Below are positions 296-63,908 of a stretch of DNA of 64,000 bases, piece by piece. Each line of letters begins with the position of its first letter. Within the stretch, counting starts at the first letter, position 1. The position numbers and the translations under genes were made by a program. The DNA is from a virus. Taxonomy: Duplodnaviria > Caudoviricetes. The stretch spans positions 32,001 through 96,000 of the IMG/VR virus record IMGVR_UViG_3300033070_001371, one strand, 5' to 3'. The notes beneath the pieces were generated by a model that saw nothing but the letters and a program-made list of their open reading frames with translations, was not told the origin of the DNA and searched no databases.

Positions 296-979
296 ATGTC
301 GCACGCCACGGAATTGCTCCAAGACCCCGAGGTCGAGCTCAGCGTGGCGTGGAACGCCGCGATGCAGGCTCTGGGCGCCACAATTGGCGCCTGGGAACCG
401 GAGACGATCCGCATCGAGCTGGAGCGTCGAAAGGTTCCGGCTACTGACGCTTTGATGGCCAAGCTGTTGGCCGCGCAGACTGTCGTCACGGGTCCCGTCT
501 GGACCTACGACCACGACGCATTCTTCGCCATTGCATTGGCTTGTGACGGCATACCGGCCGCCGCTGACGCAATCCACCACCCGACTCCTGAGCAGCTCTG
601 CTGGGCCGTCCTGGAGATCGAGCGGCTGACCGGTGACCGCATCACGGACGATCACGGCTTCGACCCTGACGCCATTGATCCCGCCGTCGCCGCTGTGCTG
701 CATGATGAGGGAATGGTGCTGGCGCCGGACCCGCTGCACTTCGCCCAAGACGTACTCGATCAGTACACGAAGCTGGAACAGGACTTCGTCAATCGCGTCG
801 AGCGCACGTGGCTCGCTAAGAAGACACTGGCTCACGAGGCTTTACGGCGTATGCTTCGCGAGGAGCCGTCTTCGGCGCTCGACGTCCAGGTCCACCGACT
901 GGCGGCGTGTCGCATCTACTGCGACGAGCGCACTGAGCGGCGTGCGCGCCAAGATGCAGTCCTACAACACTCCGTATAG
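296..979 (+). CDS. Hypothetical protein directly upstream of terL
   Basis: 227-aa ORF with typical codon usage, overlapping the terL start; no recognisable motif. Confidence 0.7.
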   Translation: MSHATELLQDPEVELSVAWNAAMQALGATIGAWEPETIRIELERRKVPATDALMAKLLAAQTVVTGPVWTYDHDAFFAIALACDGIPAAADAIHHPTPEQLCWAVLEIERLTGDRITDDHGFDPDAIDPAVAAVLHDEGMVLAPDPLHFAQDVLDQYTKLEQDFVNRVERTWLAKKTLAHEALRRMLREEPSSALDVQVHRLAACRIYCDERTERRARQDAVLQHSV

Positions 980-2687
980 CCGCCCGAAGCGTCGCATCGA
1001 GGGGACGCGGTCGCACTTCGCGGAAAACCTCCTGATGTGGGAGGGGAACCCGTTCAGCCTGAACGACTACCCCATGTTCCGGGCGATCTACGATGATTCG
1101 CCGCAGAAGATGCTTTTGAAGACCTGCCGACAGGTCGGCAAGAGCATGACGTTGTCGACGTTCGCGATTGGCGAGTGCGTGGCGATTCCGCACTTCAAGA
1201 CGTTCTTCATTGCGCCGACCAAAGAGCAGACGCAGACGTTTTCGGTCTCGCGCGTCGGCAAATTCATTCTCTTCTCGCCGTTGATCCGCGACATCTTCGT
1301 CGACGAAGGTACGACCAACCGCGTGCTCGCCCGCTACTTCGCGCACGGCTCACAGATCGAGTTCAGCTACGCCTCCGACGACGCAGACCGTTGTCGTGGG
1401 CGTTCCTGCGACCGTCTCATGCTGGACGAAGTGCAGGACATGCTCCTCGAAGCTGTCCGCCCCGTCATCAAGGAGTGCCTCTCGGCGTCAAAGAAAGGCG
1501 GGTACCTTACGTTGTGCGGTACTCCCAAGACGATGGAGAACGGCATCGAAACGCTGTTCCAGGAGTCCACGCAGACTGAGTGGGCAATCAAGTGCGACGG
1601 CTGCGGCAAGTACTCGATTCTGCTGAGCGAGACTCAGTGCGGCAAGCGCGGTCCAGTCTGCATGAAGTGCCAGGGCTACCTCAACCCGCGCAATGGCGTC
1701 TGGGTCGACATGAACCCGAAGCCCCCTGACGAGGACGGGCGAATCAACCAAACGAAGGGCTATCACATCTCGCGTCCGATGATGCCGCAGTTCGTGCCGG
1801 CGGCGTGGCCAATCGGCCCGCTGCGCGACGCGGCGCTCGACAAGTGGAAGACCGACGTCCTGTACAACCTCGAAGGACCCGAAGCGTACCCGATCTCCGT
1901 GTTCCGCAACGAGGTCATGGGCGTCAGCGACTCGCAAGGCCGGCGCCTCGTCACCAAGGAGATGCTCCAGGTTGCGTGCGACGGGCCTTTGATTAGCCGT
2001 TCGCCGACACGCGACAACCTCACAGGCGTGACCAAAATCGCCGCCGGCATCGACTGGTCCGGCGGTGGCACTGCGACTAAGTCGGGCCCCGAGGGCTCGA
2101 TCGCGATCAAGTCGCGCACCGTACTGACGATCATCGGCAAGCTGGGTCTCGGTCGCACGCGTTTGCTCTACTACAAGATCTTCCCAGGTACGTCGCCGCT
2201 TCAAGAGTTCGACGAGATCTTTACGACGTTGATGCTCTACGACAAGGTTACGCAGTACCGCATGTTTATTGGCGGCGACGCAGGCGAAGGCAACATGTCG
2301 ATGGATATGCTCCGTAACAAGATCCAGAACGCGCAGCGCGTGCTGAAGTTCCGCTACTCCGGCACGGCGGCGGCGTACCTTGCTTGGAACAACAAGGGCA
2401 AGTTTGTCACGGTGAACCGAACGGTCTCGCTCGACTCGATCATGACGTCGTTCATCCGCAAGGAGTTTCAGTTTCCGAGCCAGCCTGAGACGATCATGGA
2501 CTTGCCGTTCAAGGACATCCTCGCGGAGTACGAGGAGGTCATCGGGCAGACGGGGGCGACTCGCAAGGTCTGGCGCCACGCCCCGAACCAGCCCGACGAC
2601 TTCCTGCACTCGCTGAACTTCGCACGGATGGCGCTCCAGATCGGCAACCAAGAGGTGAACCTCACCTCGGCCGCTGACGACGACTGA
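954..2687 (+). CDS. terL: Terminase large subunit (lambda GpA-like, with CxxC pairs)
   Basis: Walker A region KTCRQVGKS, Walker B RGRSCDRLMLDEVQD, coupling motif LCGTP, CDGC/CMKC pair, nuclease AGIDWSG and C-terminal PDDFLHS. Start moved to ATG 954 (MQSYNT). Confidence 0.85.
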   Translation: MQSYNTPYSRPKRRIEGTRSHFAENLLMWEGNPFSLNDYPMFRAIYDDSPQKMLLKTCRQVGKSMTLSTFAIGECVAIPHFKTFFIAPTKEQTQTFSVSRVGKFILFSPLIRDIFVDEGTTNRVLARYFAHGSQIEFSYASDDADRCRGRSCDRLMLDEVQDMLLEAVRPVIKECLSASKKGGYLTLCGTPKTMENGIETLFQESTQTEWAIKCDGCGKYSILLSETQCGKRGPVCMKCQGYLNPRNGVWVDMNPKPPDEDGRINQTKGYHISRPMMPQFVPAAWPIGPLRDAALDKWKTDVLYNLEGPEAYPISVFRNEVMGVSDSQGRRLVTKEMLQVACDGPLISRSPTRDNLTGVTKIAAGIDWSGGGTATKSGPEGSIAIKSRTVLTIIGKLGLGRTRLLYYKIFPGTSPLQEFDEIFTTLMLYDKVTQYRMFIGGDAGEGNMSMDMLRNKIQNAQRVLKFRYSGTAAAYLAWNNKGKFVTVNRTVSLDSIMTSFIRKEFQFPSQPETIMDLPFKDILAEYEEVIGQTGATRKVWRHAPNQPDDFLHSLNFARMALQIGNQEVNLTSAADDD

Positions 2688-2703
2688 AGGCCAAAGAAAA
2701 GGA

Positions 2704-3342
2704 TCAGTACGGGGCGCGGCCGGCGAGAAAACGCGTGTACACATGGCGCATGACGGCCATGCCGCGCTTCACGTCGGCCTCGGCGCGGTGCTCGATCAGC
2801 GCGGGGCCGCCGATGCCTTCGTAGGCGAAGTGCAGTCCGAACTGCCCGAGGCCCTTCTCGTGCGCGATCAGCCACGAGAAGCTCTGGAGCTCGACGAAGC
2901 GGCGCTCCCAGGGGGGCAGCAGGCCGAACTTCTCGTGATTGAAGAGCAGCCCACGACGCTTGAGCTCCTCCCACATGAAGCCTCGGTCGAACGGGACGTT
3001 CTGGCTCACGAGACTGGCCTTGCGGGTGATCTTGGCGACTTGATTCCAGCACAACGCTGCTTCGGCGCTGTCGATGGCGGGAGCACCCACCCAATCAGGG
3101 TGGGCGAGGTGAAAACCGTTGGTCTTGAACGCCTGTTCTTCCGCGCGCGCCATGTCTTCGGTTGACGGCGTAAAGCGAAAGCAGGCGTGGTCCAGAGGTG
3201 CGTCCCAGGTGGCAGGGTCGGGACGCACGCGAGTGACGGCGATCTCGATGACGCGATGTACTGCGTCGCTGAGGCCGGTGGTCTCGACGTCGACGAAGGC
3301 GAGGTCGGAGAGAGAAGTCTGGGCGGGTCGGTAGTTACTCAT
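2704..3342 (-). CDS. DnaQ-like DEDDh 3'-5' exonuclease
   Basis: Exo I FVDVETTG, Exo II QNVPFD, Exo III HRAEAD; start chosen at the ATG 7 nt after a TATGAT box. Confidence 0.85.
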   Translation of the reverse strand: MSNYRPAQTSLSDLAFVDVETTGLSDAVHRVIEIAVTRVRPDPATWDAPLDHACFRFTPSTEDMARAEEQAFKTNGFHLAHPDWVGAPAIDSAEAALCWNQVAKITRKASLVSQNVPFDRGFMWEELKRRGLLFNHEKFGLLPPWERRFVELQSFSWLIAHEKGLGQFGLHFAYEGIGGPALIEHRAEADVKRGMAVMRHVYTRFLAGRAPY

Positions 3343-3349
3343 GCCGAGC

Positions 3350-3377
3350 ATCATACCGACCCGCCTAGTGAGGTCAA
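3350..3377 (-). promoter_or_regulatory. Sigma70-like promoter TTGACC-N16-TATGAT, leaderless
   Basis: Minus strand reads TTGACC tcactaggcgggtcgg TATGAT gctcggc ATG. Confidence 0.6.
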
Positions 3378-3389
3378 TCTTCCAGTAGT

Positions 3390-6300: not shown

Positions 6301-6827
6301 TCGGATCGCACAGGAATGCCGAGCGCGTGGAGCGCCGGCACGCCGCACGCGATGACCGTAAGCGAACGTTCCGGGGCGTCCGCCTGACGCACAGCAGCGA
6401 GCCGCGCGACTTCGGTCTTGAGTGGCGTGCGGCACGCAGTGATCACGGCCTTGCTAGGTGCGTCGACCGCGCACTTTACGGCGTACACGTACCGGAAGTT
6501 CAATGCGGCGAACTCTGGGTGTTGCTTCTGCACTTCCTTGATCGCGTTCTTCAAAACGCGCGCGCCGTCGTCGCGGAACGGCTGGTGGAAGAGCGAGTTG
6601 TCCGGGATCGCCTTCCCGCCGACGACGGCGAGGCGCGGCGCGATCGGCGCGTCACCGACGACCAAGATGTCAGCGTAGTCAGAGCCGTCGGGTTGAGGGA
6701 AGTAGTGCGCGCCCTTGAAGGCGGGGCACGACGCACACCCCGGGCCTGCCTTGGTGGCGAACTCGGGGCGCGCGCAGATGTCGCAGTGGAATGGCGGTGG
6801 CGCCTCCGGGAGCGAGATCGACGCCAT
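3390..6827 (-). CDS. polA: Family A DNA polymerase with N-terminal UDG-like domain and 3'-5' exonuclease
   Basis: UDG4-like ILVVGDAP/YAVKC; exonuclease SFDTET, FNAKYD, YAAVD; polymerase TGRLSS, NQNI, motif A DAKGAE, motif B RDNIKRLVFGLLFG, motif C TVHDS. Confidence 0.92.
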   Translation of the reverse strand: MASISLPEAPPPFHCDICARPEFATKAGPGCASCPAFKGAHYFPQPDGSDYADILVVGDAPIAPRLAVVGGKAIPDNSLFHQPFRDDGARVLKNAIKEVQKQHPEFAALNFRYVYAVKCAVDAPSKAVITACRTPLKTEVARLAAVRQADAPERSLTVIACGVPALHALGIPVRSEKEAAGRVYDNVKFGDAYLTVIFTRSLKALAVAVGKYSSVLADVERAMRIATHAEVRTLTRAEIEKEYIYPKSVAEVKDLVRHVFEYTRPGVEHLDWKISFDTETNTLHPHWSGTKLVAVSFAWDDGKAATVPLWHKDTPYDPAAAYEHIVWLMRSGKPLIWFNAKYDFKVFWRLGWPLGDVGKIAWDVFCAEHVLEEDKKGQYNLKFLTKQDLPFLSGYEDRLHDELLKADAANFTEVQVSAKRAVKLPATIATALERAVAAGHIKNAQFRPETVRKTQEKLKQLPLGDEAGLARLQSQLADLNLLLTAKANGEFTGKAEREAAKERKRKGGFENVSLDELYFYAAVDSDATRRLAVKQSERMYNEDDKFERWRQQVHEEIVSGPPTSELAKFRVDVLCQHPTPLHRLVKEDYLPRQTQLAKIEYQGINIDQSYREWGDRALDNTITSTTDKIFELCGEKFPLNSPKKLAGYLFTGGVGYKHPDPELAEQMAREHPEHVRYVGGRIMYRSQHYTVKGQMQTGEAVLKSLVTRYKCPLANLLMTLKKADKAKNSFFKNIGILSNMFEDGRIHPGYNITGTSTGRLSSSSGVDGVGFNNQNIIKGLIGALRDMRGNLVIGPDGKPVFEGVKCKKLFIPDDDSYCFGNADAKGAEVSIFAGYAKDSALINALLEGMDAHCFFASQCLNPALVAAGLHGEDRRIALANAAIDDDHAWSYEDFLKGKDDLLEDKAYGKRLKALRDNIKRLVFGLLFGAGVKKIAEIAGINLELAQQIKKLLFTKFPTLEAFINQTIWEMRTFGIVETYHGRRRRFSLGKYAPNALRAKAERQAVNFKIQGTNSDIVMSVLCWVADVIERDLKGRLLLTVHDSIGFQVPKKYAHQVPEIFKKYGTDRVARECPWLPVPYRWDVELGPSYGEVMGAEKYLAKLPAPLPMAELDGYTEEEIFEDLRDPDEHELAPSTKPKRPAPRVA

Positions 6828-11526: not shown

Positions 11527-11623
11527 GGAACACTCCGTCAGGCCAAAGAAACGGTAGGAAGAGAACGGCCCACGCCCCCGCCGCCTTTACGCGGTACAGG
11601 AGCGCGGGCCGTGCAGCAGCGAA

Positions 11624-12892: not shown

Positions 12893-13717
12893 ATGGCTAA
12901 GACGAACAACCCGCTGCTAGACCTGCACTTCCGTGATGTCGGAACGCACCCGATTCGGTCGTCGAAAGAGGAGTACGATCTCTTTACGGCGTACCAAGAG
13001 GCGCGTACTCGCGCAGAGTTGTCGGCGAGTCCGAGCGAGCGGGAAAGGTTTCAAGCGAAGTGCGACAAGCTGCGCAACGAGATCGCGAGCGGCTACTACC
13101 GCTTCGTGATCAAACGCGCAAAACACAGGTCGCACGACGAAACGCTGTTCGCTGAGTTGATCTCCGCCGGCTACGAAGGGCTGCTCCATGCGATCACGCT
13201 GTTCGATCCCAAGCGCGGCAACCGCTTCCTGACGTACGCAGCGAGCTGGATCAACGTGAAGATGCAGGAAGCTACGTATCGCGTGCGTACGGTGCATGTG
13301 CCGAACCACACACGCAAAGAGATGCGACGCACGCGCGTTGAGAACGAGCGCAAACAAGCGCTCGGCGAGCACGTCGAACACTTCGAGGAACCGTCAATCG
13401 CGTCGATCGACAACGTAGTTATCGTCGACGAAAACATCGACGTCGAAGCCGATGTACAGCGCCAACGCGTTGACCCGCTGGCGCTGCTGGCGCAGGCGCA
13501 GCTGACGCGGGTCGAACGGTTGGTGCTGATCTACGCGTTTGGGCTGCGCGGTGGCGAACCTAAAGACGCGCGGACGATCGGGCAAATCCTGTACGAGATC
13601 GACGGCTCGCAGATGACGGAGCCGCGCGTAGAAGAAGTTCAGATCCGCGCCCTAGCACGCCTGCGAGCTCACCTCTCCGAAGAGGAGATCATGAGCTTCG
13701 CAGACGTGCTGGGGTGA
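12893..13717 (+). CDS. Sigma70-family RNA polymerase sigma factor
   Basis: Region 1.2-like LDLHFRDV..EEYDL, region 2 LISAGYEGLLHAITLFDPKRGNRFLTYAASWI, region 4 LTRVERLVL..FGL..IG..RV..VQ.RAL..LR. Confidence 0.88.
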   Translation: MAKTNNPLLDLHFRDVGTHPIRSSKEEYDLFTAYQEARTRAELSASPSERERFQAKCDKLRNEIASGYYRFVIKRAKHRSHDETLFAELISAGYEGLLHAITLFDPKRGNRFLTYAASWINVKMQEATYRVRTVHVPNHTRKEMRRTRVENERKQALGEHVEHFEEPSIASIDNVVIVDENIDVEADVQRQRVDPLALLAQAQLTRVERLVLIYAFGLRGGEPKDARTIGQILYEIDGSQMTEPRVEEVQIRALARLRAHLSEEEIMSFADVLG

Positions 13718-13722: not shown

Positions 13723-14775
13723 CTACTCCTCGCCCTCGGGCAGCGCCGGCAGGTCGGCGAGCCCGGCGGCTTGGGCGAGGCCGTCGCGACGACCCTTCTC
13801 GTACGCCACGGTCTCCGGCTTGGCCTTGTCACTGGCCTTGAGCTTCGCGAAGCGCGCGTTCGAGAAGTTGTAAAAGGCCACGAGATCGGTCTTGCTGATG
13901 GGCTTGAGGTCCTTCGCCACGACCTCGTCGGGCAGCTTGACGGAGCGCCCGCCGGTCTTGGCGCTGCCCTTGCCCTTGTCGTCCGTGGCCTTCTGCTTGT
14001 TGAGCCACTTCTCGATCACGAACTTCAGGTACTTCGGCTCCATCTCTTCGTCGGTCGCCTGCTGCGCGAACGCGACCTGCATCTCCATGTCGGTCACGCG
14101 TCGAAGCTCGCGCACCACCGACGGTGCATAGCTCTTGAACGGCTCCTTGGCTCCCTCGCGGACCATCTTCTGGACGCGCTCGTCGAGCTTGCCGATCGCG
14201 AGCACCTGCGAGACGTTGCCCTCGGAGACCGAGAGCACTTCCTTGAGCTCAGACTGCTTGAGCCCGTTGGCCATCAAGTTCTGGAAGTAGGTGAACTTGT
14301 CCCAGAACGTCATCTGGTCGCGCTTGAGGTTCTCTTGGCCCGCGAGGACGAGGTACTCCTTGAGGTCCTTGATCTCCTTCGCCTTGCAAGTGATCTCCTT
14401 GAGCCCGGCCTGGATCGAGCCCTCGCGGCGGCGGCGCCCAGCAGCGATGAGCCAGACTTCTTTGCCGGTCTTCTTGTTGCGCGCGTAGGTCACGCACGGG
14501 TCCTGGATCAGGCCGTCCTTCTTGATCGACGCGACGAACTCCTCGTCGACCAAGGCCGGCGCCGAGCGTGCGTCGACCTTGCTCACCGCGATCTCCTTGG
14601 GGCTGATCTTGATGGAGCCAGTCGCCGCGACCTCGGCAGGCAGCGGCAGGAACTCGTACTCGAAACCGAGCGGGTTGGTCGCCCTCTCAGCGGCGGCGGC
14701 CGACCCGGACGGGTCGGACGACTTGGACTTGGCTTTCGCCTTGGGGGTGGTGTTCTCCGTGGTCTCCGTAGTCAT
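13723..14775 (-). CDS. parB: ParB/Spo0J-like protein
   Basis: FVASIKKDGLIQDP, IAAGRRR (GxxR), ENLKRDQM, HTH LKQSELKEVLSVSEGNVSQ; start MTTETT after AAGGAG. Confidence 0.82.
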   Translation of the reverse strand: MTTETTENTTPKAKAKSKSSDPSGSAAAAERATNPLGFEYEFLPLPAEVAATGSIKISPKEIAVSKVDARSAPALVDEEFVASIKKDGLIQDPCVTYARNKKTGKEVWLIAAGRRRREGSIQAGLKEITCKAKEIKDLKEYLVLAGQENLKRDQMTFWDKFTYFQNLMANGLKQSELKEVLSVSEGNVSQVLAIGKLDERVQKMVREGAKEPFKSYAPSVVRELRRVTDMEMQVAFAQQATDEEMEPKYLKFVIEKWLNKQKATDDKGKGSAKTGGRSVKLPDEVVAKDLKPISKTDLVAFYNFSNARFAKLKASDKAKPETVAYEKGRRDGLAQAAGLADLPALPEGEE

Positions 14776-15133: not shown

Positions 15134-15237
15134 CGTTCGAGGTTTGCCACGTCAGCCGTACGCCGTAAAGGCTTGGCTTCGATCTCTTCTACCGCGTCCG
15201 CGTCTAGATTCGTGACAACGCCGTACTTCTCACCCAT
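15046..15237 (-). CDS. Small zinc-ribbon protein
   Basis: 63 aa, CPTC..CPNC, GGAG RBS. Confidence 0.6.
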   Translation of the reverse strand: MGEKYGVVTNLDADAVEEIEAKPLRRTADVANLERCPTCDVPILETATRSRRCPNCGTLPFER

Positions 15238-21473: not shown

Positions 21474-21584
21474 CAACGATGTCCTACAACGAAGATGACG
21501 AACCGGAAGACCGAACGGATCAACATGCAACTCTCCTTTGGCGAGCAGAAGGGCTCACCACGGGCTTTTACCGCGTACAGACGC

Positions 21585-26610: not shown

Positions 26611-26987
26611 TGCCGGACCTCAAGGACATCGCGCGCGGCGTAACGACCCGCCTCAAGAAGCGTCAGCGAGGTTTTCACTTCGACAAGGAGCCGGGTTTTT
26701 ACGGCGTAACAAAGAGCTTCGGCGACGCCGCCAAGCAGAAACTCGCCAGCGAAGCGCGCGCTCGTGCGATCCGCAAGGTCGCGGCGAAGTACGCGCTGCT
26801 TGACGAGTCGGGCGAACCTGTGGAAGCGCTCGCGAAGCTCTTTGCACAGAGTAACTTCGGTTACGGCGACGCGCCCGTCGCCCCGAAGCGTACCGGCGAC
26901 CCCCTCTGGGGCGCGTCGATGGGTATGCCGGCGGAGCCCGGCGACCGCAATGGGCTGAGCCGCAATCTCACGTACGGAGGAGTTTGA
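26610..26987 (+). CDS. Small putative head-internal protein
   Basis: TGATG-coupled; AIRKVAAKYAL motif. Confidence 0.6.
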   Translation: MPDLKDIARGVTTRLKKRQRGFHFDKEPGFYGVTKSFGDAAKQKLASEARARAIRKVAAKYALLDESGEPVEALAKLFAQSNFGYGDAPVAPKRTGDPLWGASMGMPAEPGDRNGLSRNLTYGGV

Positions 26988-39919: not shown

Positions 39920-39943
39920 CTACCCTACGGAAGGAGAGCCACC

Positions 39944-40725: not shown

Positions 40726-41106
40726 ATGCCAACCCTCGACGAAACCCTGCGCACGCTGCCCCGGGCGTCTCGCCCGACAACCAAGACCGCTTCCGTGCTA
40801 CCGGAGTCGCTCGCGGGACAGGTGCGAGCCCTGGCTGGCGCGCTGCGCGACCTGCCCGAGCCTCGAATCACGTGGGGGAGCCTGAACGCCGTAAAGATGG
40901 CAGGCTTCCGCTCACCGCCGCCCGCGCCCCCCGCGCGAGAGGTACCGGAGGACGACGACCGTCCCAGTGCGCCGCTGCGAAAGTTGGCGCACGCCGTACG
41001 GAGCGCCGAGGACTTGCGTGCCGTACAGCTCTTCGAGAAGTCCGCCCTCGCGCTGCGTGCGGTGCGGGGTCTTACACTCCTTCGCGAACGGATCTCGTCG
41101 CCATGA
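40726..41106 (+). CDS. Small putative head protein
   Basis: Abuts the previous stop; four K-x-A sites. Confidence 0.6.
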   Translation: MPTLDETLRTLPRASRPTTKTASVLPESLAGQVRALAGALRDLPEPRITWGSLNAVKMAGFRSPPPAPPAREVPEDDDRPSAPLRKLAHAVRSAEDLRAVQLFEKSALALRAVRGLTLLRERISSP

Positions 41107-43480: not shown

Positions 43481-44154
43481 CGCCCACCGAGCGCCGCGTC
43501 CGCCACCTCGTGCCCGTGGCCGAGGGAACCGGGGCCGCCTACCCGGCGAGTCGCTCCAACGGAGCGTCGCGCAAGGAGCAGGTGCCCCTGGAGGTCGGCA
43601 CGTCGTTCGACGCCAACGACTTCTTCAACTGGTATGACCGCCCCGTCGACGAGGGGCCTCCATACGCCGTAAAGGGCGCCGCCCACGCCCACGACCGCAT
43701 GGAGGAGCGCACCCCGTTCGCGCGCAGCAACGTCCGCCCGCTCCAGCGCGCGGTCGACGCCCTCGGGCTACCGCCGGGCAGCTACCACGTGCCGTTACGC
43801 GGCCAAGACGGAACCGTGCTCGGTTACGCCCAGTTCAAGGCTGTACCCGGGCGCAACCACCCAGTGCTTGCGACAGTGCTCGGGCGCGAGATGAGCCCGA
43901 GCGGAGCCGACGTAACGACCCTCGTAAAATCAGCAGGGCCTACGCCTGAAACGAATGTCGCACCGATAGCCGAGGGCAAGTTTGACACCGACCACATCGA
44001 CCCTCGTCCCCCGGAGTCACGCGCGTGGAACCTCGCGCACCGTCTGGCGGGCCGCGACGAGACGAAGCGCTACGCAATCCGGCGGGCCTTCGACCATATG
44101 GCCGAACCGACGGGCGACGCGCAGGAGTCGCCGGTGGAGTCGCCACAACCATGA
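43477..44154 (+). CDS. Putative head-cargo protein with a possible RelE/BECR-like module
   Basis: HAHDRMEER..LATVL segment flanked by VKGA and VKSA. Confidence 0.55.
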   Translation: MTPTERRVRHLVPVAEGTGAAYPASRSNGASRKEQVPLEVGTSFDANDFFNWYDRPVDEGPPYAVKGAAHAHDRMEERTPFARSNVRPLQRAVDALGLPPGSYHVPLRGQDGTVLGYAQFKAVPGRNHPVLATVLGREMSPSGADVTTLVKSAGPTPETNVAPIAEGKFDTDHIDPRPPESRAWNLAHRLAGRDETKRYAIRRAFDHMAEPTGDAQESPVESPQP

Positions 44155-45732: not shown

Positions 45733-48700
45733 ATGGCACGGCCCCTCGTTCTGATCTTCCAGGAGCTCGCGTCGCCGCAGGCGACGCCGAACACCCCCGA
45801 CCTCAACACCATCGTCGTGGGTCCGGCCTACGACCTGTTCGACTACCCAGACGACGCGGCGACGATCCTGCTGCCGTCGACGTACGGGCAGCTGGAGGCG
45901 CGCGCCGGTAACGGCACGTATCCCGGCTACCAGCCGCCCGCGACCGGCGCCGACGCCGTCACGGTGCTCGACGGCGGATACCCCGGGCAGAGCGCCGGGT
46001 CGAAGGTCGACCACGCGTCGATCAAGGCGGTGCTCCGCCTGCCGCGCGTCGTGCTCGGCTCGACGTACCTCGGCGCAGGGGTCGCCCCGGTGTTCGGTGG
46101 CGGCGTCACCACGACGACCGCCGACCGCACACTCGTGACGATCACGGGCGGCATCACGACGGACTTCGTCGCGGCAGGCATCCAGCCGGGCGACCGCGTG
46201 ATCCTCACGTCGTCGCAGGCGGGCGTCGAGCAGACGGTCGTGCGCGTCGTGCAGAGCGTCGGCGAACCGAACGGCTCGGGCCTCGTCGCGCCGGGCAACG
46301 AGGGCAAGCTGCGCCTAACGCAGCAGTTGCCAGACTCGGGAGCGGGCCTTGGTCAGTGGACCTACGACGCCAACACCGAGATTCGCGTCGAGCGCACACT
46401 CGCGACCCAAGACCTGCTCGATCCCACCGACTCGATCGTGACTTTCCCCGAGCCCGGCTCCGACAAGCTGGTGATCAAGGGCGGTGTCACGCTGTCGGTG
46501 GCGTTGACGCCGGTCGCAACTGTCGCGGTGCCCGCCCCGGCCACGTCGACGGTAGCGCGCACGCTGTCGTACGCCGAGGTCTACCTCGCGTACCGCGCGC
46601 TGCGCCAGGACCTCCAGGAAGTCGGCTCGGTCACGTCGGACGACATCCGCGTGGTCGGGGGCGTCTCGACGCTGGTCGGCCTGGGCAAGATCGACGCACG
46701 CAACCCGCTGGCTGTCGGTGCGTTCCTCGCGCTCCAGAACGGCGGGACGGTGCCAATCTACTACTTCGGTGTCGCCACTGACGACGCCGCAGGCCACACG
46801 GCTGCGCGTGGCGCGATGTCGAACCGTCGCGATCTGTACTGCTTCGTACCGCTGACGCAAGACCTGAACGTTCACGCAGCGTACAAGGCCGAGTTCGACC
46901 AGATGGCGGACCCGAACTTCGCGCAGACCAACGGCGTGATCCAGAAGTTCCGCATCGTGCTCGGGTCGATCCCGCTCCCGACGACGGAGACGATCTACTC
47001 CGGTTCGATCTCCGGCGTCGCGCAGGCCCCGACCGGAGTCAACACCAACCGCTACCGCACCGTCTCCATCGCCGCCGTCTCGACGGGGTCAATCAGCGTG
47101 CGTGCAGTGCTGCCGGGCGACACCGTGACCTTCGGACTGACTCCGAGCTCCTCGGATTGGCAGAGCCGGCGCGGCACGCACACCGTGAGCCACATCAACA
47201 GCTCGAAAGACTACCCGAACCCGGGTGATCCGAGCGCTTTCGAGGTCGTGCCCGGCTCGTCCCGCTGGGACGACTCGGCAGGCGCCGTCGCAGGCGACAT
47301 CGAGCTGTTGATCCGTGCGCCGGACGGCACCGTCAAGGTGTCGAACCTTTCGCAGGTCGACATCTCCACGGGCGCTGGCGGCACGCTCGGCACAGTGCGC
47401 TACGCGATGAAGAATCCCACGGTGGTCGGAGGCCCGTACACGGTGCTGTACGCGGCGAGCCCTGGCCTGCCCGCTGTGACGGTTACCGTCGCAGGCTTCG
47501 CGATCACTGTGACGGTCGACGGCACGTCCCACACCCACACGCAGGTCGTGAACGCCGTAAACGCCCACCCGGTGGTGTCGTCTCTTCTGCTGGCCTCGGT
47601 CCAGGGAGGCGGAGGAAACATCGTGCTCCCGGATTCGCAGGATAAACGCGATCCCATCAGCGGTCAGACCGGCGCAGCAGCGAACATCGTCGTCGGCGCG
47701 GCCGTGGGCAACATGCGCGTCACTGGCCTCACGGGCATGACAGCGCTGAGCGTCGGGAACTACCTGACGATCAGCGGTGCGGCCTCGGTCGCCAACAATG
47801 GCACGTTCTTGATTGCGGCGTTCAATAACGCCAACTCGGTGGACGTAGTCAACGCGGGCGCCGTCATCCCTGACGCAAACAACGGTGCGCTCGCGTGGAT
47901 CGAGCGGCGCCCGTACACCTCGATCGTGCCGGTCGTCGGGTCGTGCACCGCGACGGTCGCGCTGAACGACGATCTGTACAACCGCCTGGAAGATGGCAGC
48001 GCGACTTTCCTCGCGGCGGGCGTCCTGCCGGGCGACACGATCGAGTTCCCGCTCGACCCGAACAACTACGGGCCGACGGCGTTCGAGGGGCGCGTGCTGT
48101 CCTACAAGGTCAGCACCGTGCAGAACGAGAACCGCCTGCTGATCGCGAACGGCGAAGACGACACCGGCTCGGTCGCGAAGGAGTTGCCGCACTTCTTCGC
48201 GCGCGACCTCCAAGATCGCTACATCGACAACACGACACCCAACGCGCAGAACTACCGCATCCTGCGGGCGCTTTCGCTGGAAGACCAGATCCTCGCACTC
48301 GTGACCATTGCGCAGTCGGTGCGCTCGAAGCGCTTGACTGTGATGTGGCCTGATCAAGTCGAGGTCTCGGACTTGCGCGATGGCGCACTGCCGCGCGCGG
48401 TGCCATCAACGCGAACGCTCGCGGGACTCCAACCGAGCTTCTACCTCGCGTGCGCGGTCGGCGGCGTGATCGCCGGCATCCCGCCCCAGGCAGGTCTCAC
48501 TAACGGCACGTTCATCGGCTTCACCAAGCTGGTGCACGCGCAGGGCTACTTCAGCGAGCCGCAGCTGTCGCGCCTCTCGGACGGCGGCCTGTTCGTCTGC
48601 GTGCAGCGCACGCCGGGCGCTCTGCCCGAGTGCATCCACCAGCTGACGACGGACCCGACGGCCATCGAGGTCGGCGAGCTCTCGGTCGTGAAGAACGTCG

Positions 48701-49543: not shown

Positions 49544-50329
49544 ATGCCCACGTACCCGATCGGCGTCACCAAGTCCCTCGCCACGTGGTCCCTTCAGCGG
49601 AACCACGTCGAGCGCATCCTCGACAACGCGACGTACGACGCCGCGCACCCGGACGACACGCTGCTGCTCGCCGGTCCGGCGCGTCGTTCCGTCGCCCGCC
49701 CAGAGCGCAACACGCCCCGCACGCTGATGGCGCTCGGGATGTTTACGGCGTTTGGGGTGCAGACCCAGGCGCCCGTCACACCGATGATGTCGATCGGCTC
49801 CGGCCGCTCGTACTTCCTGCGCGGCAAATCGCAGTCGTCGTGGAACGTGCAGCGCGTCATGATCAACGGGCGCAACTTGCTGCGCGCGCTGTATCACAAC
49901 GCGGTCGAAGTCGGCGGGCTCAACCCTGACCAGTTCGACGACCCGGCCGCGTTCGAGGGCGCGCCGAACTCGCAATTCTTCATCAACCTGGACAGCGAGC
50001 TGTTCTACATCCCCTTCGGCATGGCCGTGATCATGCGCACCAAGAGCCGCACGCTCGTCGCGAGCTGCTACCTGGAGCTCTGCATGATCAACTCGTGGGG
50101 CATGCAGATCGGCGCCGGGCAGGCGATGGTCATGGAGCAGGTCTCCGGCTTCTGCGACCGCATCTTGCCCTATCAGGCATCGGACGCAATGGAGGTCCCC
50201 TCCGTCGGTCGCGCACTCATGGACGCGGTGCTCGGCCTCGCGCCCAACGTCTTCCCAACGCCGACGTACAACCGCATGGGCGCGTTCGGCGATACCGGCC
50301 TCGGAGACTCCACCGTCAACGCGCTGTAG
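49544..50329 (+). CDS. Probable tail tube protein
   Basis: Follows the sheath; SIGSGRSYF and CYLELCMI strand pattern. Confidence 0.6.
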   Translation: MPTYPIGVTKSLATWSLQRNHVERILDNATYDAAHPDDTLLLAGPARRSVARPERNTPRTLMALGMFTAFGVQTQAPVTPMMSIGSGRSYFLRGKSQSSWNVQRVMINGRNLLRALYHNAVEVGGLNPDQFDDPAAFEGAPNSQFFINLDSELFYIPFGMAVIMRTKSRTLVASCYLELCMINSWGMQIGAGQAMVMEQVSGFCDRILPYQASDAMEVPSVGRALMDAVLGLAPNVFPTPTYNRMGAFGDTGLGDSTVNAL

Positions 50330-54348: not shown

Positions 54349-56056
54349 CGCCGTAAAGAACGCGCTGACCCTCGTACAGACGCAGGCGCGCGCCACGCAA
54401 GCCCTCGTTCAAACCGAGGAAGGCGACCGCGTACGTCTCGTCAACGCGGCAATCCAAGCTGCCGTCGCGACGATCACGACGTTCGTGAACGAGCTGCTCG
54501 ACACCACGGGCGTCTACGTCCTAGTCGTACCGCTGCCGAAGAAGGGCCTCGTCGCGCTGGCGAGCCGCCCGAACAACCCCGACGAGCCCGGCTCAAACTT
54601 CGTGCAAGTGCCGCAACAGAACCTGCTCAACGGGCTGCCAGCGGCCGACGCGGCGCGCGTACGACAAAGTCCGTCGTTCGCACAGATCTTCAACCCCGAC
54701 GACCTGTTTCTCGGCGGCAATGCCTACTTCGTCAAGACGATCGCCGAAGCGCTCTACGACCCAGGCGACCGCAATCGTCCAAAGTTCGATGCCGCAAGCT
54801 ACTGGACCTACTCGATGCTCGTCGCGGGCGCGACGGACGTGACGAGCCTGCTGAGCGCTGCGACGTTCTTCGACCGGCTGTTCTCGACGACACGCAGCGC
54901 GAACCGCGTGAGCGCGAGCCGGGGCGTCTCGGACTTCGTGCCGCGCGGCCTGCGCGTCGGACCTTCGGGGCGCGGCTACTTCCCGGTGCTGGAGTGGGAG
55001 CGCGTGCCGCAGTCGGTCGCGCTGTTGAGCTACGACGGCGCGCGCGTAGTGCCGACCGAGTACGCAATCATCCGCTCGACAGACTTCCGTGCAAAGACCG
55101 CCACGACGATCAATGAACTATTCGACGACGTAAACCTGCGCGAAGGGCAGACCGGGCGTTTCGGCGCCCGCGTGCTCAAAGTCGCGCCGTACGACGGCGT
55201 GCTCAACCGCTTCATCGACGCGAGCGAGCAAGTCGCCAACCATCCGTACTTCTATCACGTCGCGTTCAAGTCACGGACTGAGGCGCCCGCATCGAGCGAC
55301 GGCACCGCACCCTCGACGCCGCCCAATCGACCGAGTGGCTCGCCTCGTACCGAAGCTACGACAGCGGTCAACAATCCATACCACTTGCTTTCATCCTGCG
55401 CCGAATGGCGCCGACCCGCTTCACGCTCACAGCTAACAGACGCACGCATGGGTGTCGCCCCGGACTGGGCTCGCACCCCGTCAGTTGCGACGATGTTTCC
55501 AGGCCTGGAACGCCTGCTCGACCGCACGCTCGAAAACTTGTCGTCCCTCAACACAGTGTCGAGCAACCTCAACGAGCGCAACAACGCGTACCTCGACATG
55601 CTTGGTCGCGAAGTTGACCGCCTATCGCGCCAGATCGCTGAGATCAACGGATACCTGTCGCAGCTCCAAGCAATCTTCGCCACGCCTGACGCCGACGTAT
55701 TCTCGACGCTTCGCCAAGGGCGCGGCGGCGTCGGCTCGTTTCTTTCGGACGTAGTATTGACGATCGACGACACGAGCGACCCCAACCGCCCGTCGTTCGA
55801 CACCGGAGACGAGTACGTTACCGGCGTCGTGTTGTTGTGTGTCGGACCGGACCCTGCACCGATTGCGGCGGCATTCGCGATGCTGTCAGGCCTTTTCGGC
55901 TCACCAGCATCGAACGACGCACTCGCCGGCATCGACTCGATCCAAACAACTCTCGCGCAAGCAGAAGCCACGATCGCCGCACAGCTCGACTCCGTCGCGT
56001 TCGGCCCGGACATGCAACCTCGACCGCCCGGCGAACCTGATGCAAGCTGCACATAG
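54272..56056 (+). CDS. Putative tail/baseplate-associated protein
   Basis: AAGGA RBS; coiled-coil segments plus an FnIII-like beta region. Confidence 0.6.
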   Translation: MPWRSLNLTLPPVVQTITQTLGTGLDAVKNALTLVQTQARATQALVQTEEGDRVRLVNAAIQAAVATITTFVNELLDTTGVYVLVVPLPKKGLVALASRPNNPDEPGSNFVQVPQQNLLNGLPAADAARVRQSPSFAQIFNPDDLFLGGNAYFVKTIAEALYDPGDRNRPKFDAASYWTYSMLVAGATDVTSLLSAATFFDRLFSTTRSANRVSASRGVSDFVPRGLRVGPSGRGYFPVLEWERVPQSVALLSYDGARVVPTEYAIIRSTDFRAKTATTINELFDDVNLREGQTGRFGARVLKVAPYDGVLNRFIDASEQVANHPYFYHVAFKSRTEAPASSDGTAPSTPPNRPSGSPRTEATTAVNNPYHLLSSCAEWRRPASRSQLTDARMGVAPDWARTPSVATMFPGLERLLDRTLENLSSLNTVSSNLNERNNAYLDMLGREVDRLSRQIAEINGYLSQLQAIFATPDADVFSTLRQGRGGVGSFLSDVVLTIDDTSDPNRPSFDTGDEYVTGVVLLCVGPDPAPIAAAFAMLSGLFGSPASNDALAGIDSIQTTLAQAEATIAAQLDSVAFGPDMQPRPPGEPDASCT

Positions 56057-58197: not shown

Positions 58198-58494
58198 TCA
58201 ACGGTGTTTACGGCGTTCGCTGCGCGGCACCTCGACTGAAGCCGAGCCTTCGGTGACCACAGAGAGCTCTTCGACCACAGGGCGCTCTTCGACCACAGGA
58301 GGAGGCTCTGGCGGAGTGGGCGGCGTGGGCACCGCCGGGAGCGGCACCTCATCCCACGTCCGAGCGAACGTGATCTGCGAGATGTCGCCCTCGACGCGCG
58401 CCGACTGAGCATCCGCTGCGTGCTCCAGTGGAACGACGAGCGCACCGGGCACGTAGTAGAGCCGCCCCTCGCGCGAAACTGCTTTGAACGCCAT
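58198..58494 (-). CDS. Hypothetical protein
   Basis: 98 aa, Pro/Glu-rich tail. Confidence 0.55.
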   Translation of the reverse strand: MAFKAVSREGRLYYVPGALVVPLEHAADAQSARVEGDISQITFARTWDEVPLPAVPTPPTPPEPPPVVEERPVVEELSVVTEGSASVEVPRSERRKHR

Positions 58495-58522
58495 GCGTAA
58501 CCTCTACCCCCTACACTAAGGC
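58495..58522. promoter_or_regulatory. Bidirectional -10 element between divergent genes
   Basis: TACACTA reads TACACT on + and TAGTGT on - within a 28-bp gap. Confidence 0.45.
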
Positions 58523-58906: not shown

Positions 58907-58910
58907 CGCT

Positions 58911-59486: not shown

Positions 59487-59878
59487 CAGCGGCCTCCCGC
59501 GTCGCGCTGAGCCTGCGCATCGGTCAGGGCCCGCTCGACGCTCGCGAGGTAGCGGGTGAGGTCGCCGCCGGACGCCTGGAGGCGTCGCACCTCGTCGCGC
59601 TCAGACGCCATTCGACCGACAACGAACGAGGGGTCAATCGGGTGTGCCGCGACGGCGAAGTGCTCGTCGTAGCGCTCGTGGAAGAGCGCACGGGAGACCC
59701 AGCGGCGGAGGCGGTCGCCGTACGTCGAGAACTGCGTGACGTACTCGACGAGGACGTGACTCGTCTCGACGGCCATGACCTGCACGACGTGCGGCTCGCG
59801 CGGGTCGAGATTCCCTCCATCGTCGGCGGTTACGCCGTACAGGTCGAAGAAGGCACCGGGCTTGAGCTCATCCGACAT
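59486..59878 (-). CDS. Hypothetical protein
   Basis: TGATG-coupled to tdk. Confidence 0.6.
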   Translation of the reverse strand: MSDELKPGAFFDLYGVTADDGGNLDPREPHVVQVMAVETSHVLVEYVTQFSTYGDRLRRWVSRALFHERYDEHFAVAAHPIDPSFVVGRMASERDEVRRLQASGGDLTRYLASVERALTDAQAQRDAGGR

Positions 59879-60468: not shown

Positions 60469-60477
60469 ATCTGGAGT

Positions 60478-60786
60478 CTAACCCGAATGGTGCCGGTGGC
60501 GTCGATGATGAGGGTGTGTCGACGGAGAGGACAAAACTTGTCCAAGATTGCTGTTGCTCATCAGGCCCTGGTTCGACATCGTATGTTCGGCCATCAGGCC
60601 AGGAAACGCTGCGAACTGCCGAGCCAGAGCAGCTTGCCGCTCTTGGTCACGCACAGCGCTGTAGGAGTCGAACGCCGCCGAAAGCGCTGGGAACGCACGC
60701 TGCACAAGCTCGGGACTCGCCGTCTTGAGGTAGAGGTCGACGACGCGGCGTGCGGCGCGGACTCGCGCGAGCTTCTCCAGATTCAC
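60478..60786 (-). CDS. Small putative head-cargo protein
   Basis: EKLA and LKTA sites, LSAAF motif, His-rich end. Confidence 0.6.
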   Translation of the reverse strand: MNLEKLARVRAARRVVDLYLKTASPELVQRAFPALSAAFDSYSAVRDQERQAALARQFAAFPGLMAEHTMSNQGLMSNSNLGQVLSSPSTHPHHRRHRHHSG

Positions 60787-62968: not shown

Positions 62969-62978
62969 GACGAGACGA

Positions 62979-63653
62979 TTATACGCCCAGAGCACGCTCC
63001 AACGCGCGGTGCGCGCGGTAGACCCCTGGTTCGACAACGGCGTAAAGGTCGCCGGGCAAGCCGAATGGCTGCGCAAAGTGTCGGTGCGCAGTGTCTGCCA
63101 CGCGCGTGACGCGTGCGCGCGCATGGCCCGCGAAGGCTCCACGCCCTCGTGTGCGATAGCTCGCAGCGAAGAGCACGGTGAGCGGCCAGTCGAGCTCCTC
63201 CAACTTCTCGCGCACCGCGAGGCTACGCAGCGCCGGGTCGAGCAAGTAGATCGGTCCAAGGGGCACCGACGGAAAGGAGCGATCCGTCGTCGTGTCCTGC
63301 GCGTGTCGCGCGAGCAGCACCGCCGACGACCCGCCGAACGAGAAGCCAACAATCGCGGGCGCGGCGCAACGCTGCGCGCAAGCCCAGCGCGCCGCACGCC
63401 CGATCCAATCCCCGGAACGCCCCGCGCCTTCTTCGGCCTCGGGCACGAACACGGTGAAACCCTTGCGCGCCAACCGATCAGCCGTGCCACCGACAGACCA
63501 GATGCCGGGCGCAAGGCCCGAGGCCCACGCGCCCGCGTAATGCACAGGCCCCGTCGCGCCATGGAGCAAGATGATGCTCGCGTAGTTGGCTGCGTCAGGG
63601 TCCGGGTACGCTGTCAGCGTGAGCGCATCGTCGTCGTAGATCAGCTCCGGCAT
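62979..63653 (-). CDS. Alpha/beta hydrolase
   Basis: ILLHG, GFSFGG nucleophile elbow, LLDP, C-terminal His. Confidence 0.72.
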   Translation of the reverse strand: MPELIYDDDALTLTAYPDPDAANYASIILLHGATGPVHYAGAWASGLAPGIWSVGGTADRLARKGFTVFVPEAEEGAGRSGDWIGRAARWACAQRCAAPAIVGFSFGGSSAVLLARHAQDTTTDRSFPSVPLGPIYLLDPALRSLAVREKLEELDWPLTVLFAASYRTRGRGAFAGHARARVTRVADTAHRHFAQPFGLPGDLYAVVEPGVYRAHRALERALGV

Positions 63654-63880
63654 CACGCTCCCTCCGGCTGAACGGCTGTCGTGCGCGAGCAGTTCGGGCA
63701 CTGCGGGTGCAGTGCCTTAGACTCGACGCAGAACACGACGTTCTCTTCGGGCGCGCAGCTCGCGGTGAAGACGTAGTTGCAGGCGCAGCGCACCTGCTGG
63801 CACTCGCCGTCATCCTGGATGACGGTGAAGAGTGGCGCGGGCGCGCGGACGGGACCGGTGAAGTCGTTGGCGGTGAACAT
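63653..63880 (-). CDS. Small Cys-rich protein
   Basis: CAC..CPNC; leaderless TAAACT-N6-ATG; TGATG-coupled to the hydrolase. Confidence 0.6.
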   Translation of the reverse strand: MFTANDFTGPVRAPAPLFTVIQDDGECQQVRCACNYVFTASCAPEENVVFCVESKALHPQCPNCSRTTAVQPEGA

Positions 63881-63886
63881 GGAGAC

Positions 63887-63908
63887 AGTTTACCGCGTAC
63901 GGTAAACT
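63887..63908. promoter_or_regulatory. 9-bp inverted repeat overlapping a -10 box and a motif copy
   Basis: AGTTTACCG cgta CGGTAAACT. Confidence 0.6.

Follow-up and report, generated by a model that had tools for sequence, protein, structure and literature searches.

What reads a ten-base motif that recurs about once every 2 kb along a phage chromosome, most often inside genes? We addressed this question in a stretch of 64,000 bp (the window), bases 32001-96000 of a 119,215-bp IMG/VR virus record from an uncultured large phage of wastewater and river samples; the record (contig G000) is only 69% complete. An earlier note on this DNA had reported at least 31 exact copies of ACSSSGTAAA, and an exact-match scan of the window finds 31, at the places indicated there, 17 on the plus and 14 on the minus strand:

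841..850, minus: exact site ACGCCGTAAA, antisense in a gene
3165..3174, plus: exact site ACGGCGTAAA, antisense in exonuclease gene
6475..6484, minus: exact site ACGCCGTAAA, sense in PolA gene; kept in sister phage G006
9245..9254, minus: exact site ACGCGGTAAA; in G006 outer bases kept, centre changed
11586..11595, minus: exact site ACCGCGTAAA, between called genes; kept in G006
12983..12992, minus: exact site ACGCCGTAAA, within sigma-factor gene; retained in L012 but not in G006
15160..15169, plus: exact site ACGCCGTAAA, upstream of ParB gene, in small zinc-ribbon-like ORF; kept in G006 and L012
15875..15884, plus: exact site ACGCGGTAAA, in PD-(D/E)XK nuclease gene; kept in G006 and L012
18649..18658, plus: exact site ACGGCGTAAA, in SNF2 helicase gene; kept in relatives
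21567..21576, minus: exact site ACGCGGTAAA, 21 bp upstream of RNAP gene start; kept in L009, L010 and L013
22099..22108, minus: exact site ACGGCGTAAA, in RNAP gene; identical in 6/6 aligned relatives
24151..24160, plus: exact site ACGCCGTAAA, in RNAP gene; retained in L009, L010, L012 and L013 but not in G006
26698..26707, minus: exact site ACGCCGTAAA
28004..28013, plus: exact site ACGGCGTAAA, in beta'-C gene; identical in every aligned relative
29175..29184, plus: exact site ACGCCGTAAA
31780..31789, plus: exact site ACGCCGTAAA
34369..34378, minus: exact site ACGGCGTAAA
36366..36375, plus: exact site ACGGCGTAAA
37233..37242, plus: exact site ACGCCGTAAA; one base differs in G006
40886..40895, plus: exact site ACGCCGTAAA; kept in G006
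43664..43673, plus: exact site ACGCCGTAAA
45684..45693, plus: exact site ACGCCGTAAA, intergenic, 40 bp upstream of a 1079-aa gene
47552..47561, plus: exact site ACGCCGTAAA; G006 has a site 9 bp away instead
49742..49751, minus: exact site ACGCCGTAAA
51500..51509, minus: exact site ACCGCGTAAA
54348..54357, plus: exact site ACGCCGTAAA
56983..56992, plus: exact site ACGGCGTAAA, outside called genes
58207..58216, minus: exact site ACGCCGTAAA
61548..61557, plus: exact site ACGCGGTAAA
63037..63046, plus: exact site ACGGCGTAAA
63889..63898, minus: exact site ACGCGGTAAA, between genes

One-mismatch copies had been placed in the four largest gaps between exact sites. These copies exist, each starting one base later than had been given (4753, 33172, 38883 and 59829), and three of them lie in such gaps, whereas that at 33172 lies in a gap of 2589 bp. 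When near-sites are counted in, the largest gap of the window is 2918 bp, in line with the earlier estimate of about 2.9 kb:

2220..2229, minus: near-site ACGTCGTAAA
4753..4762, minus: near-site ACACCGTAAA, in the 3165-6475 gap, with a centre not entirely S; G006 has a site at the orthologous position
33172..33181, plus: near-site ACGGCGTAAG, on a GTAC-GSC-GTAA core
38883..38892, minus: near-site ACGCCGTAAG, in the widest gap of the window (37233-40886)
55125..55134, plus: near-site ACGACGTAAA; G006 likewise has a site at the orthologous position
59829..59838, minus: near-site ACGGCGTAAC, fills the 58207-61548 gap

Dinucleotide shuffles of the window contain on average 0.32 copies of ACSSSGTAAA (maximum 3), and the whole contig contains 56, compared to 1 in a control read backwards; 56 of the 99 GTAAA pentamers of the contig sit inside these sites. 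Shuffling of synonymous codons within 108 crude gene calls keeps 4.05 +/- 1.9 in-gene copies (maximum 10, 300 runs) vs. 39 observed, and the enrichment thus goes beyond codon usage. A compositional or codon artefact devoid of any functional element could point to the roughly 4 copies that codon-shuffled genes still yield, but it is refuted by the shuffles. The excess is roughly 100-fold, the spacing is even, wobble bases are conserved (see below), and sites are also found between genes and in lineage-specific DNA; we give the artefact practically no credence.

The spacing is more even than random, another point on which the earlier reading holds. Over the contig, the gaps between sites have a mean of 2105 bp and a CV of 0.40, with a minimum of 532 and a maximum of 4229 bp, while random placement gives a CV of 0.98 +/- 0.12, with medians of 27 for the smallest gap and 9274 for the largest. 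The observed CV, minimum gap and maximum gap were each matched in 0 of 20,000 simulations. The in-gene sites, 18 sense and 21 antisense, occupy five frame/orientation classes, the sixth being empty because the motif would there read TAA. The diversity of frames and orientations is therefore as first described, and so is the difference from the stoperators of L5. Like the array, Cluster A stoperators (L5, Bxb1) are many 13-bp sites distributed through a phage genome, and they are bound by one phage protein, as is proposed for the array; unlike it, they are asymmetric and oriented with transcription (PMC4351075), whereas the sites studied here run in both senses and become perfect palindromes in sister lineages.

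The sister phage G006 has a GC content of 49%, compared to 63.5% for G000, and the regions flanking the sites are 72% identical between the two. At 36 orthologous sites, identity is 86-100% for the motif bases other than central position 4, where it is 78%. For wobble bases it is 92-94% within the motif but only 61-69% in the flanks, and since they are conserved inside the motif and far less outside it, selection acts on DNA and not on protein, as the earlier note had proposed.

The G000 sites amount to one full half-site, GTAAAG, joined to AC and, in most cases, T/A from the opposite half, i.e. about 1.5 half-sites. The perfect palindrome TTTAC-SSS-GTAAA has 0 copies in the G000 genome, where the flank frequencies of the sites themselves predict about 3.6. 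In related phages the motif takes lineage-specific forms of comparable density, namely: TTCAC-N3-GTGAA, CGTAC-GSC-GTACG and TAACC-N-GGTTA. There are 39 copies of TTCAC-N3-GTGAA in G001 (0.1 expected, CV 0.55), 90 of TACG-N-CGTA in G005 (complete, 186.8 kb; 1.8 expected, CV 0.53) and 34 of AACC-N-GGTT in G007 (complete, 191 kb; 2.4 expected, CV 0.62). The TTTCAC arms of the G001-type site match what we take to be the parS half-site. Because sister lineages bear perfect palindromes at similar density, the recognised object appears to be a dyad on double-stranded DNA. Along with the wobble conservation and the lack of a link between orientation and transcription, this upholds the earlier proposal of a genome-wide lattice for a dimeric DNA-binding protein.

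Such a protein might be supplied by the host, e.g. a LexA-type repressor or a host ParB/Noc that the phage titrates or recruits. The LexA box of Bdellovibrio is TTAC-N3-GTAA, to which the motif is formally similar, and differences in motif among lineages could track different hosts. However, the motif differs from one phage lineage to another along with the ParB, and it stays the same between the 63.5% and 49% GC sisters, which argues against a host factor; the LexA likeness raised earlier is only a formal one. These sisters, probably of different hosts, share the motif at orthologous places as well as a ParB that is 77% identical, and arrays are found only alongside the phage ParB. We therefore consider a host reader very improbable. 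A search of 185,579 species genomes turned up no relative.

The leading candidate reader is the ParB-type protein of the phage itself, which the earlier note had listed simply among the proteins to assay; it is encoded next to a sigma factor:

12893..13717, plus: sigma-70-like factor gene (Sigma70_r2), always adjoining the ParB gene in relatives
13723..14775, minus: orphan ParB/Noc/KorB-family gene, 350 aa, candidate site reader

Pfam ParB_N and HTH_ParB are weak in the window protein and above cut-off in its syntenic orthologues. The family profile matches Noc (E 5e-35, its best sequence match), Spo0J (4e-29) and KorB (1.5e-16), Foldseek groups the AF2 model (pLDDT 80) with the ParB/Noc/KorB fold, and PHROGs annotates a ParB-like partition protein. 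Classical partition is unlikely, since no ParA was found; the search of the G000 contig also revealed no methylase, no conserved nickase and no Tet/JBP gene. A syntenic ParB_N + HTH_ParB protein lies beside the sigma gene in all array-bearing genomes and loci examined (synteny seen in 12 loci), and the palindrome array is absent in the only two available relatives that lack this ParB, the complete Arash genome and G010 (83% complete), both of them distant. Seven ParBs of the GTAAA class (G000, L015/L032, L031, L012, L072, L075 and L076), down to 50% identity, have in common [IV]GKLD after the recognition helix, where other motif classes carry F[DE] or LT. The link between ParB and the array is a candidate one, resting on family knowledge, co-occurrence and synteny, all confounded by shared ancestry.

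Noc, like the phage protein, is an orphan ParB paralogue without ParA that has many dispersed palindromes, in its case some 70 NBS sites across the chromosome of Bacillus subtilis. These occur at about 1 per 60 kb and are not evenly spaced; furthermore, Noc has an N-terminal membrane-binding helix, whereas the first 33 residues of the phage protein are predicted to be disordered and are Lys-rich.

KorB offers a closer parallel in its sites. Its operator OB, TTTAGC-S-GCTAAA, is 13 bp long with a central S and TTTA...TAAA arms (PMC13768133), and on the IncP plasmid RK2, with 12 OB operators, the KorB clamp loads at a site and slides kilobases (PMC11790492, PMC13768133). Both systems combine a ParB-family protein with many dispersed 13-bp odd palindromes of this design, whose sequence and position are preserved among distant relatives, and in both proteins box II lacks the Glu of GERR (GARRYR in KorB, GRRRR in the phage protein). 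They differ in that the phage has 1 site per 2.1 kb vs. 1 per 5 kb for OB, and its sites are statistically even, mostly inside coding sequence, and of about 1.5 half-sites in G000. In addition, the element carrying the array is not a plasmid but a large phage that encodes its own RNA polymerase, no IncC/ParA or KorA-like partner was identified, and the phage profile is closer to Noc and Spo0J.

It is possible that a protein other than ParB reads the sites, since about 40 other G000 genes show the same clade-restricted pattern, most of them without Pfam or PHROG assignment. We regard as doubtful the version in which a different phage-encoded, clade-specific dimeric DNA-binding protein binds them while ParB has another role. 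Recognition-helix residues do not map one-to-one onto motif class (GTGAA goes with four different helices), and Cluster O mycobacteriophages pair a genome-wide 17-bp dyad repeat with a ParB-like protein that has no Pfam ParB HTH (PMC4351075). This repeat, TGTTCGG-N3-CCGAACA in phages such as Corndog, is unexplained (PMC4351075, PMC6439249); it resembles the array in its 3-bp spacer, in its density, with 31-37 copies in 70 kb or about one every 1.9 kb, and in not being oriented with transcription. The Corndog repeats differ in being crowded in the right arm, uneven (CV 0.94, P 0.46; computed here) and mostly between genes or at gene starts, and the ParB-like gp90 has ParB_N only. Against a different protein, ParB is the only one found here from a family known to read 13-16-bp TTT...AAA palindromes, and the OB-like geometry and parS-like arms would have to be coincidence (PMC13768133).

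The asymmetry of the G000 site, with its one full half, is also reminiscent of nick sites. A site-specific nickase or base-modifying enzyme could act on the sites, whose spacing would then serve to mark or relax the DNA at intervals, on the model of the localised nicks of T5/tf-type phages or of sequence-specific hypermodification; phages with nick-associated motifs are known (PMC3517423, PMC11780129). ParB might then be an accessory, as with ParB-dependent thymine dioxygenases, and phage ParB homologues can activate DNA-modifying enzymes (PMC13229309). However, the ParB-dependent dioxygenases described have a specificity of 2-3 nt, and the ParBs that go with them have no DNA-binding domain, whereas the window ParB has an HTH. 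Only one of the genomes has an N6/N4 methylase, the sole HNH gene is private to the G000 contig, and the perfect palindromes of sister lineages give no choice of strand. A Tet/JBP gene is found in 0/5 genomes (two complete), which carries little weight because the family is also found in 0/14 control genomes. We consider this explanation improbable.

We put at about 0.55 the probability that the sites are loading sites for the phage's own ParB-type clamp, spaced for coverage of the whole genome. The 1.5 half-sites and the missing perfect palindrome are unusual for a symmetric clamp loader and count against this ParB reading. According to it, a ParB dimer would recognise the 13-bp odd palindrome family (T)TTAC-GSC-GTAAA(G), with TGTACGCCGTAAAG as the predicted target duplex, and would then close into a nucleotide-bound clamp that slides onto flanking DNA, like KorB/ParB. 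The limited reach of each clamp would lead selection to hold a site every ~2 kb, with gaps kept to about 4 kb at most and neighbouring sites at least about 0.5 kb apart. The entire phage chromosome would thereby be covered, and such a cover may serve in condensing or marking the phage DNA, in regulating the phage's own RNA polymerase, or in shielding the DNA.

The window contains 31 copies of the word ACSSSGTAAA, where 0.32 are expected. It spans bases 32001-96000 of an IMG/VR virus contig, G000 (119,215 bp, 63.5% GC and, by the CheckV estimate, ~69% complete), which as a whole has 56 copies and a single copy of the same word read backwards. K-mer enrichment was scored with an order-2 Markov model, since a maximal-order model hides long motifs. 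Of the contig's 99 GTAAA pentamers, 56 fall within the motif. The information profile of the sites is t-g-W-A-C-G-S-C-G-T-A-A-A-G, in which the core ACG-S-CGT forms a dyad. The GTAAA arm is invariant and is followed by G in 43 of the 56 sites; the other arm is partly kept, with T or A at position -1 in 51 sites and T at -3 in 26. For comparison, a site sequence and the corresponding perfect palindrome read:

G000 site: TGTACGCCGTAAAG
Perfect-palindrome counterpart: CTTTACGCCGTAAAG

The earlier note had argued, from copies lying in different frames and orientations, that selection acts on the DNA rather than on the protein. Both the observation and the argument hold: five of the six frame and orientation classes are used (the sixth is unused because it would read a TAA stop), and synonymous shuffling within genes leaves 4.05 ± 1.9 copies vs. 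the 39 observed. Each site is paid for in rare codons, namely GTA, AAA, TTT and TTA, all minor codons in this phage. In addition, 17 of the 56 sites lie outside crude gene calls that cover 90% of the contig, indicating that non-coding DNA is favoured where it is on offer. The motif lies on the + strand 27 times and on the - strand 29 times, without polarity. A Chi-like or otherwise polar signal was therefore rejected, the more so because a dyad-symmetric site implies that it is read as duplex DNA, and a promoter reading was rejected because the sites lie within genes in both orientations.

Selection at the DNA level was also seen in a comparison with the sister phage G006, whose proteins are 57-96% (mostly 70-90%) identical to those of G000. 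Among 36 aligned sites, flank identity is 72%, compared with 86-100% for the motif bases and 78% for the central position 4. At wobble positions -5, -2, 1, 4, 7, 10 and 13 of the two main frames, identity is 0.61, 0.69, 0.92, 0.78, 0.94, 0.75 and 0.61, respectively, i.e. 0.92 and 0.94 inside the motif vs. 0.61-0.69 in the flanks, so that the wobble bases of the contact arms must be held by something besides the protein code. AC-N3-GTAAA is kept in G006 at 30 of the 38 mapped G000 sites, and most of the changes affect the three central bases. Compensated turnover of sites was considered but is not claimed: for six of the eight sites lost from G006, a site private to that phage lies no more than 1 kb away, but at the site density of G006 ~55% are estimated to have one by chance. 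It should be noted that the two genomes (G006 being represented by loci L061-L067) differ by 14 points in GC content, 49% vs. 63.5%, despite conserved gene order, an unusually large shift for such close relatives.

The sites are also more evenly spaced than random placement would give, as had been proposed. The mean gap is 2105 bp with a CV of 0.40, a minimum of 532 bp and a maximum of 4229 bp; random placement gives a CV of 0.98 ± 0.12 and median smallest and largest gaps of 27 and 9274 bp, and none of 20,000 simulations matched the observed CV, minimum or maximum gap. The array is quasi-regular (gamma shape ~6), with strict periodicity absent. Near-cognate copies, said in the earlier note to occupy the four largest gaps of the window, were found in three of these and not in the fourth. 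Between 98 and 119 kb of the contig, small genes have no homologue in any relative, yet 10 sites occur there, spaced as elsewhere and chiefly intergenic, which indicates upkeep of the array even in recently acquired DNA. More broadly, an arm of small genes (98,000-119,215 of the contig and 56,000-64,000 of the window) has no homologues detected in seven related genomes and borders a core that is well conserved. This arm, which still bears the sites, is probably a rapidly changing region of early or host-interaction genes.

Variants of the motif occur at similar density in the loci and whole records of related metagenomic phages. The closest relatives use the same word, including a contig whose ParB-family protein is just 50% identical, and TTTAC-N3-GTAAA is present in two AT-richer relatives. 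G001 carries TTCAC-N3-GTGAA (39 copies vs. 0.1 expected, CV 0.55). The complete genome G005 carries (C/A)(G/A)TAC-GSC-GTACG, with TACG-N-CGTA found 90 times vs. 1.8 expected (CV 0.53), and the complete genome G007 carries TAACC-N-GGTTA, with AACC-N-GGTT found 34 times vs. 2.4 expected (CV 0.62). Every lineage variant is an odd palindrome. Such perfect dyads point to a symmetric dimer acting on double-stranded DNA and argue against Chi-type single-strand signals, promoters and strand-specific nick sites. Several further repeats, which have no relation to the array, are possible promoters or terminators: CGGGCATGCCC (five copies in L010 and L013), ACGTTTTGCAT (seven in locus L015 of G006), GAGCGCCTTATGAGCGC-like words (six across G006), GGACCCGTCGCAGG (six in L020) and ATGCCCCCGGGCC (five to six in L026).

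The distribution of the motif also bears on who reads it. A host factor, e.g. a LexA-type protein recognizing a box like the Bdellovibrio TTAC-N3-GTAA, is an unlikely reader, given that one motif is shared by two sister phages whose GC contents lie far apart and that the sites lie within genes and track phage lineage. That the sites are targets of base modification, or of nicking like the localised nick sites of T5, tf and phiKMV, has likewise lost ground. Besides the palindromic sister motifs, no conserved nickase, methylase or Tet/JBP enzyme was found: Tet/JBP is absent from five genomes (the family was also detected in none of the control genomes of that search), an N6/N4 methylase occurs in a single genome, and the sole HNH gene is private to the G000 contig. 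Furthermore, the recently described ParB-dependent thymine dioxygenases have a specificity of 2-3 nt and work with ParBs that have no DNA-binding domain (PMC13229309).

A better candidate is encoded by the phage itself, next to a small ORF that the crude gene finder missed:

13723-14775, - strand: orphan ParB/Noc/KorB-family protein, 350 aa
15047-15236, - strand: small ORF just upstream of the ParB gene, zinc-ribbon-like with two CxxC pairs, holding the site at 15160

On its own, the protein matches ParB_N and HTH_ParB weakly (HTH_ParB 18.9 bits, below the cut-off), whereas its syntenic orthologues clear both Pfam cut-offs, with 24-60 bits for HTH_ParB. A profile of 13 orthologues retrieves solved structures of Noc (5e-35), Spo0J/ParB (~1e-28; range 1e-27 to 5e-35 including Noc) and KorB (1.5e-16). 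The AlphaFold2 model (pLDDT 80) leads Foldseek to ParB-CDP/CTP structures, Noc and KorB, and superposes on the DNA-binding domains of Noc-NBS, ParB-parS and KorB-OB. The CTPase domain has box II (AGRRRR) and box III (ENLKR); across the 13 orthologues G113, R116 and N149 never vary, and R114 and R152 hardly do. The helix-turn-helix is present, with a near-invariant VSQ motif (Q190 fully, V188 and S189 ≥90% conserved). The usual Glu of GERR is replaced by Arg. KorB, whose box II is GARRYR, likewise has no Glu there but hydrolyses CTP nonetheless (PMC13768133); the replacement is therefore a poor guide to activity. In the single-chain model, the C-terminus, where the family has its dimerisation domain, forms two confident helices (295-336) after a disordered linker, with no Pfam match; at the N-terminus, where Noc has an amphipathic membrane-targeting helix, residues 1-33 have a pLDDT below 50 and no predicted helix. 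A sigma-factor gene adjoins the ParB gene in every relative examined; the predicted complex of the two proteins scored 0.00, which is evidence in neither direction. A ParB_N-like domain of a different ParB-fold family occurs in L079 (7751-9217, + strand), an unrelated 45% GC virus contig, where it is apparently joined to a C-terminal portion resembling a DNA methyltransferase.

All of the array-bearing genomes and loci examined encode the syntenic ParB. In two ParB-less relatives, the distant Salmonella phage Arash (complete) and G010 (83% complete), no 5+5 palindrome reaches at least eight copies. Arash (L030, L080-L089) has low-copy 10-bp palindromes, namely ACCACGTGGT, with six counts in 44.6 kb (three sites read on both strands), and AGGATATCCT, CTGCATGCAG and AGCCATGGCT, with four counts each (two sites); none forms an array. 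In all seven GTAAA-class ParBs the recognition helix is closely followed by an [IV]GKLD signature, at a place in which other classes differ. No simple code between recognition-helix residues and motif class was found; this post-helix signature was all that emerged, and it is confounded by ancestry. About 40 other genes share the clade-restricted distribution of ParB. Co-occurrence and signature, both confounded by shared ancestry, lend support but do not amount to proof. Taken together, we consider the phage ParB to be the probable reader of the sites, with a probability of roughly 0.55.

KorB with its operators (OB) comes closest, by protein family as well as by the form of the site: the operator TTTAGC-S-GCTAAA is similar to the phage sites in its length, its central S and its TTTA...TAAA arms, and 12 such sites lie on 60 kb at positions conserved between IncP-alpha and IncP-beta plasmids (PMC13768133). 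No candidate for a clamp-locking partner like KorA or TrbA emerged among the phage proteins screened, which did not extend to the small clade-specific ones. Noc with its sites (NBS) is nearest when sequences are compared. The TTTCAC arms of the G001 type match the parS half-site. The nearest phage phenomenon is the genome-wide dyad repeat of Cluster O mycobacteriophages, whose function is still unexplained (PMC4351075; PMC6439249). In contrast to the even array described here, however, the 37 sites of the Cluster O phage Corndog are concentrated within a single arm (CV 0.94, checked here), and Pfam detects no ParB HTH in its ParB-like protein, whereas that of G000 is a full ParB/HTH protein. 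Cluster A stoperators are asymmetric and oriented with transcription, unlike the in-gene sites of G000 (18 sense, 21 antisense). A ParABS system would include a ParA/IncC partner and a ParA-binding motif; Pfam found no ParA-type family in the 106 crude gene calls checked of this 69% complete contig, and no LG[KR]GL-type motif was seen in the ParB N-terminus. Even tiling through genes, tied to a full ParB/HTH protein, thus falls outside the KorB/OB, Noc/NBS and Cluster O systems.

The rest of the gene content belongs to a large phage with its own transcription machinery:

21597-26144, + strand: fusion of RNA polymerase beta (Rpb2 domains) and the start of beta' (beta'-N; Rpb1 domains 1-2), part of a multisubunit enzyme, 1515 aa
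27358-29157, + strand: RNA polymerase beta'-C (Rpb1 domain 5), a separate 599-aa gene 1.2 kb downstream of the fusion

This split of a multisubunit polymerase is unusual, with three small genes between its parts; Arash has the same layout (gp206, gp216). The fusion gene is ~1 kb longer in the related locus L012 (10001-15589) and is interrupted by an annotated homing endonuclease in Vibrio phage D181, likely reflecting mobile insertions. The window also encodes a family A DNA polymerase, an SNF2 helicase, two PD-(D/E)XK nucleases, a gpA-type large terminase, two sigma-like proteins, a class II ribonucleotide reductase and a thymidine kinase. The nearest isolates, Arash and some Vibrio phages, are distant (34-35% polymerase identity), and tblastn found no ParB orthologue among 50,697 phage records (isolates). 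Two related metagenomic genomes, of 186.8 and 191.2 kb, are complete with terminal repeats. Public runs holding the phage (Logan contigs) are wastewater and riverine metagenomes, plus one coded organism at a depth of 2-3; none of the listed holders is an RNA dataset. A scan of species genomes with the RNA polymerase returned no relative of the phage, and hence neither a clue to the host nor a sign of a prophage or plasmid state.

If ParB is the reader, its dimers would bind at the individual sites, close there as nucleotide-bound clamps and then diffuse along the adjoining DNA. Selection for full coverage at least cost would be expected to yield just such even spacing with a firm ceiling on gap length, and the lower limit would fit a second site near an existing one adding nothing. 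What such a cover is for is much less certain than the reader itself: it might condense or mark the phage chromosome, act as a tracking clamp that controls the phage polymerase and sigma factors, or shield the DNA. ParB-family CTP clamps are known in chromosome and plasmid partition, in Noc function and in gene silencing by KorB, and we found no published account of a lytic-type phage that carries loading sites at 2-kb intervals throughout its genes. A speculative and rather unlikely extension is that a large virulent phage uses a ParB-family clamp outside partition, as a coat for its whole chromosome, with ~85 even loading sites keeping every kilobase clamped. In one version the coat would build a nucleoprotein body made of phage DNA only and so keep it apart from host DNA; in the other it would be a mobile cofactor for the phage sigma factor and RNA polymerase, like the T4 sliding clamp in late transcription.

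For whatever acts from each site, the even spacing sets a working range of ~1 kb on either side. If the ParB reading is true, no ParB-site array known so far would match this one in density and regularity, and it would also be a measure of how far coding sequence bends to carry a DNA signal. The clade, with at least four motif classes (GTAAA, GTGAA, GTAC and TAACC types), would then also hold natural orthogonal pairs of ParB and site.
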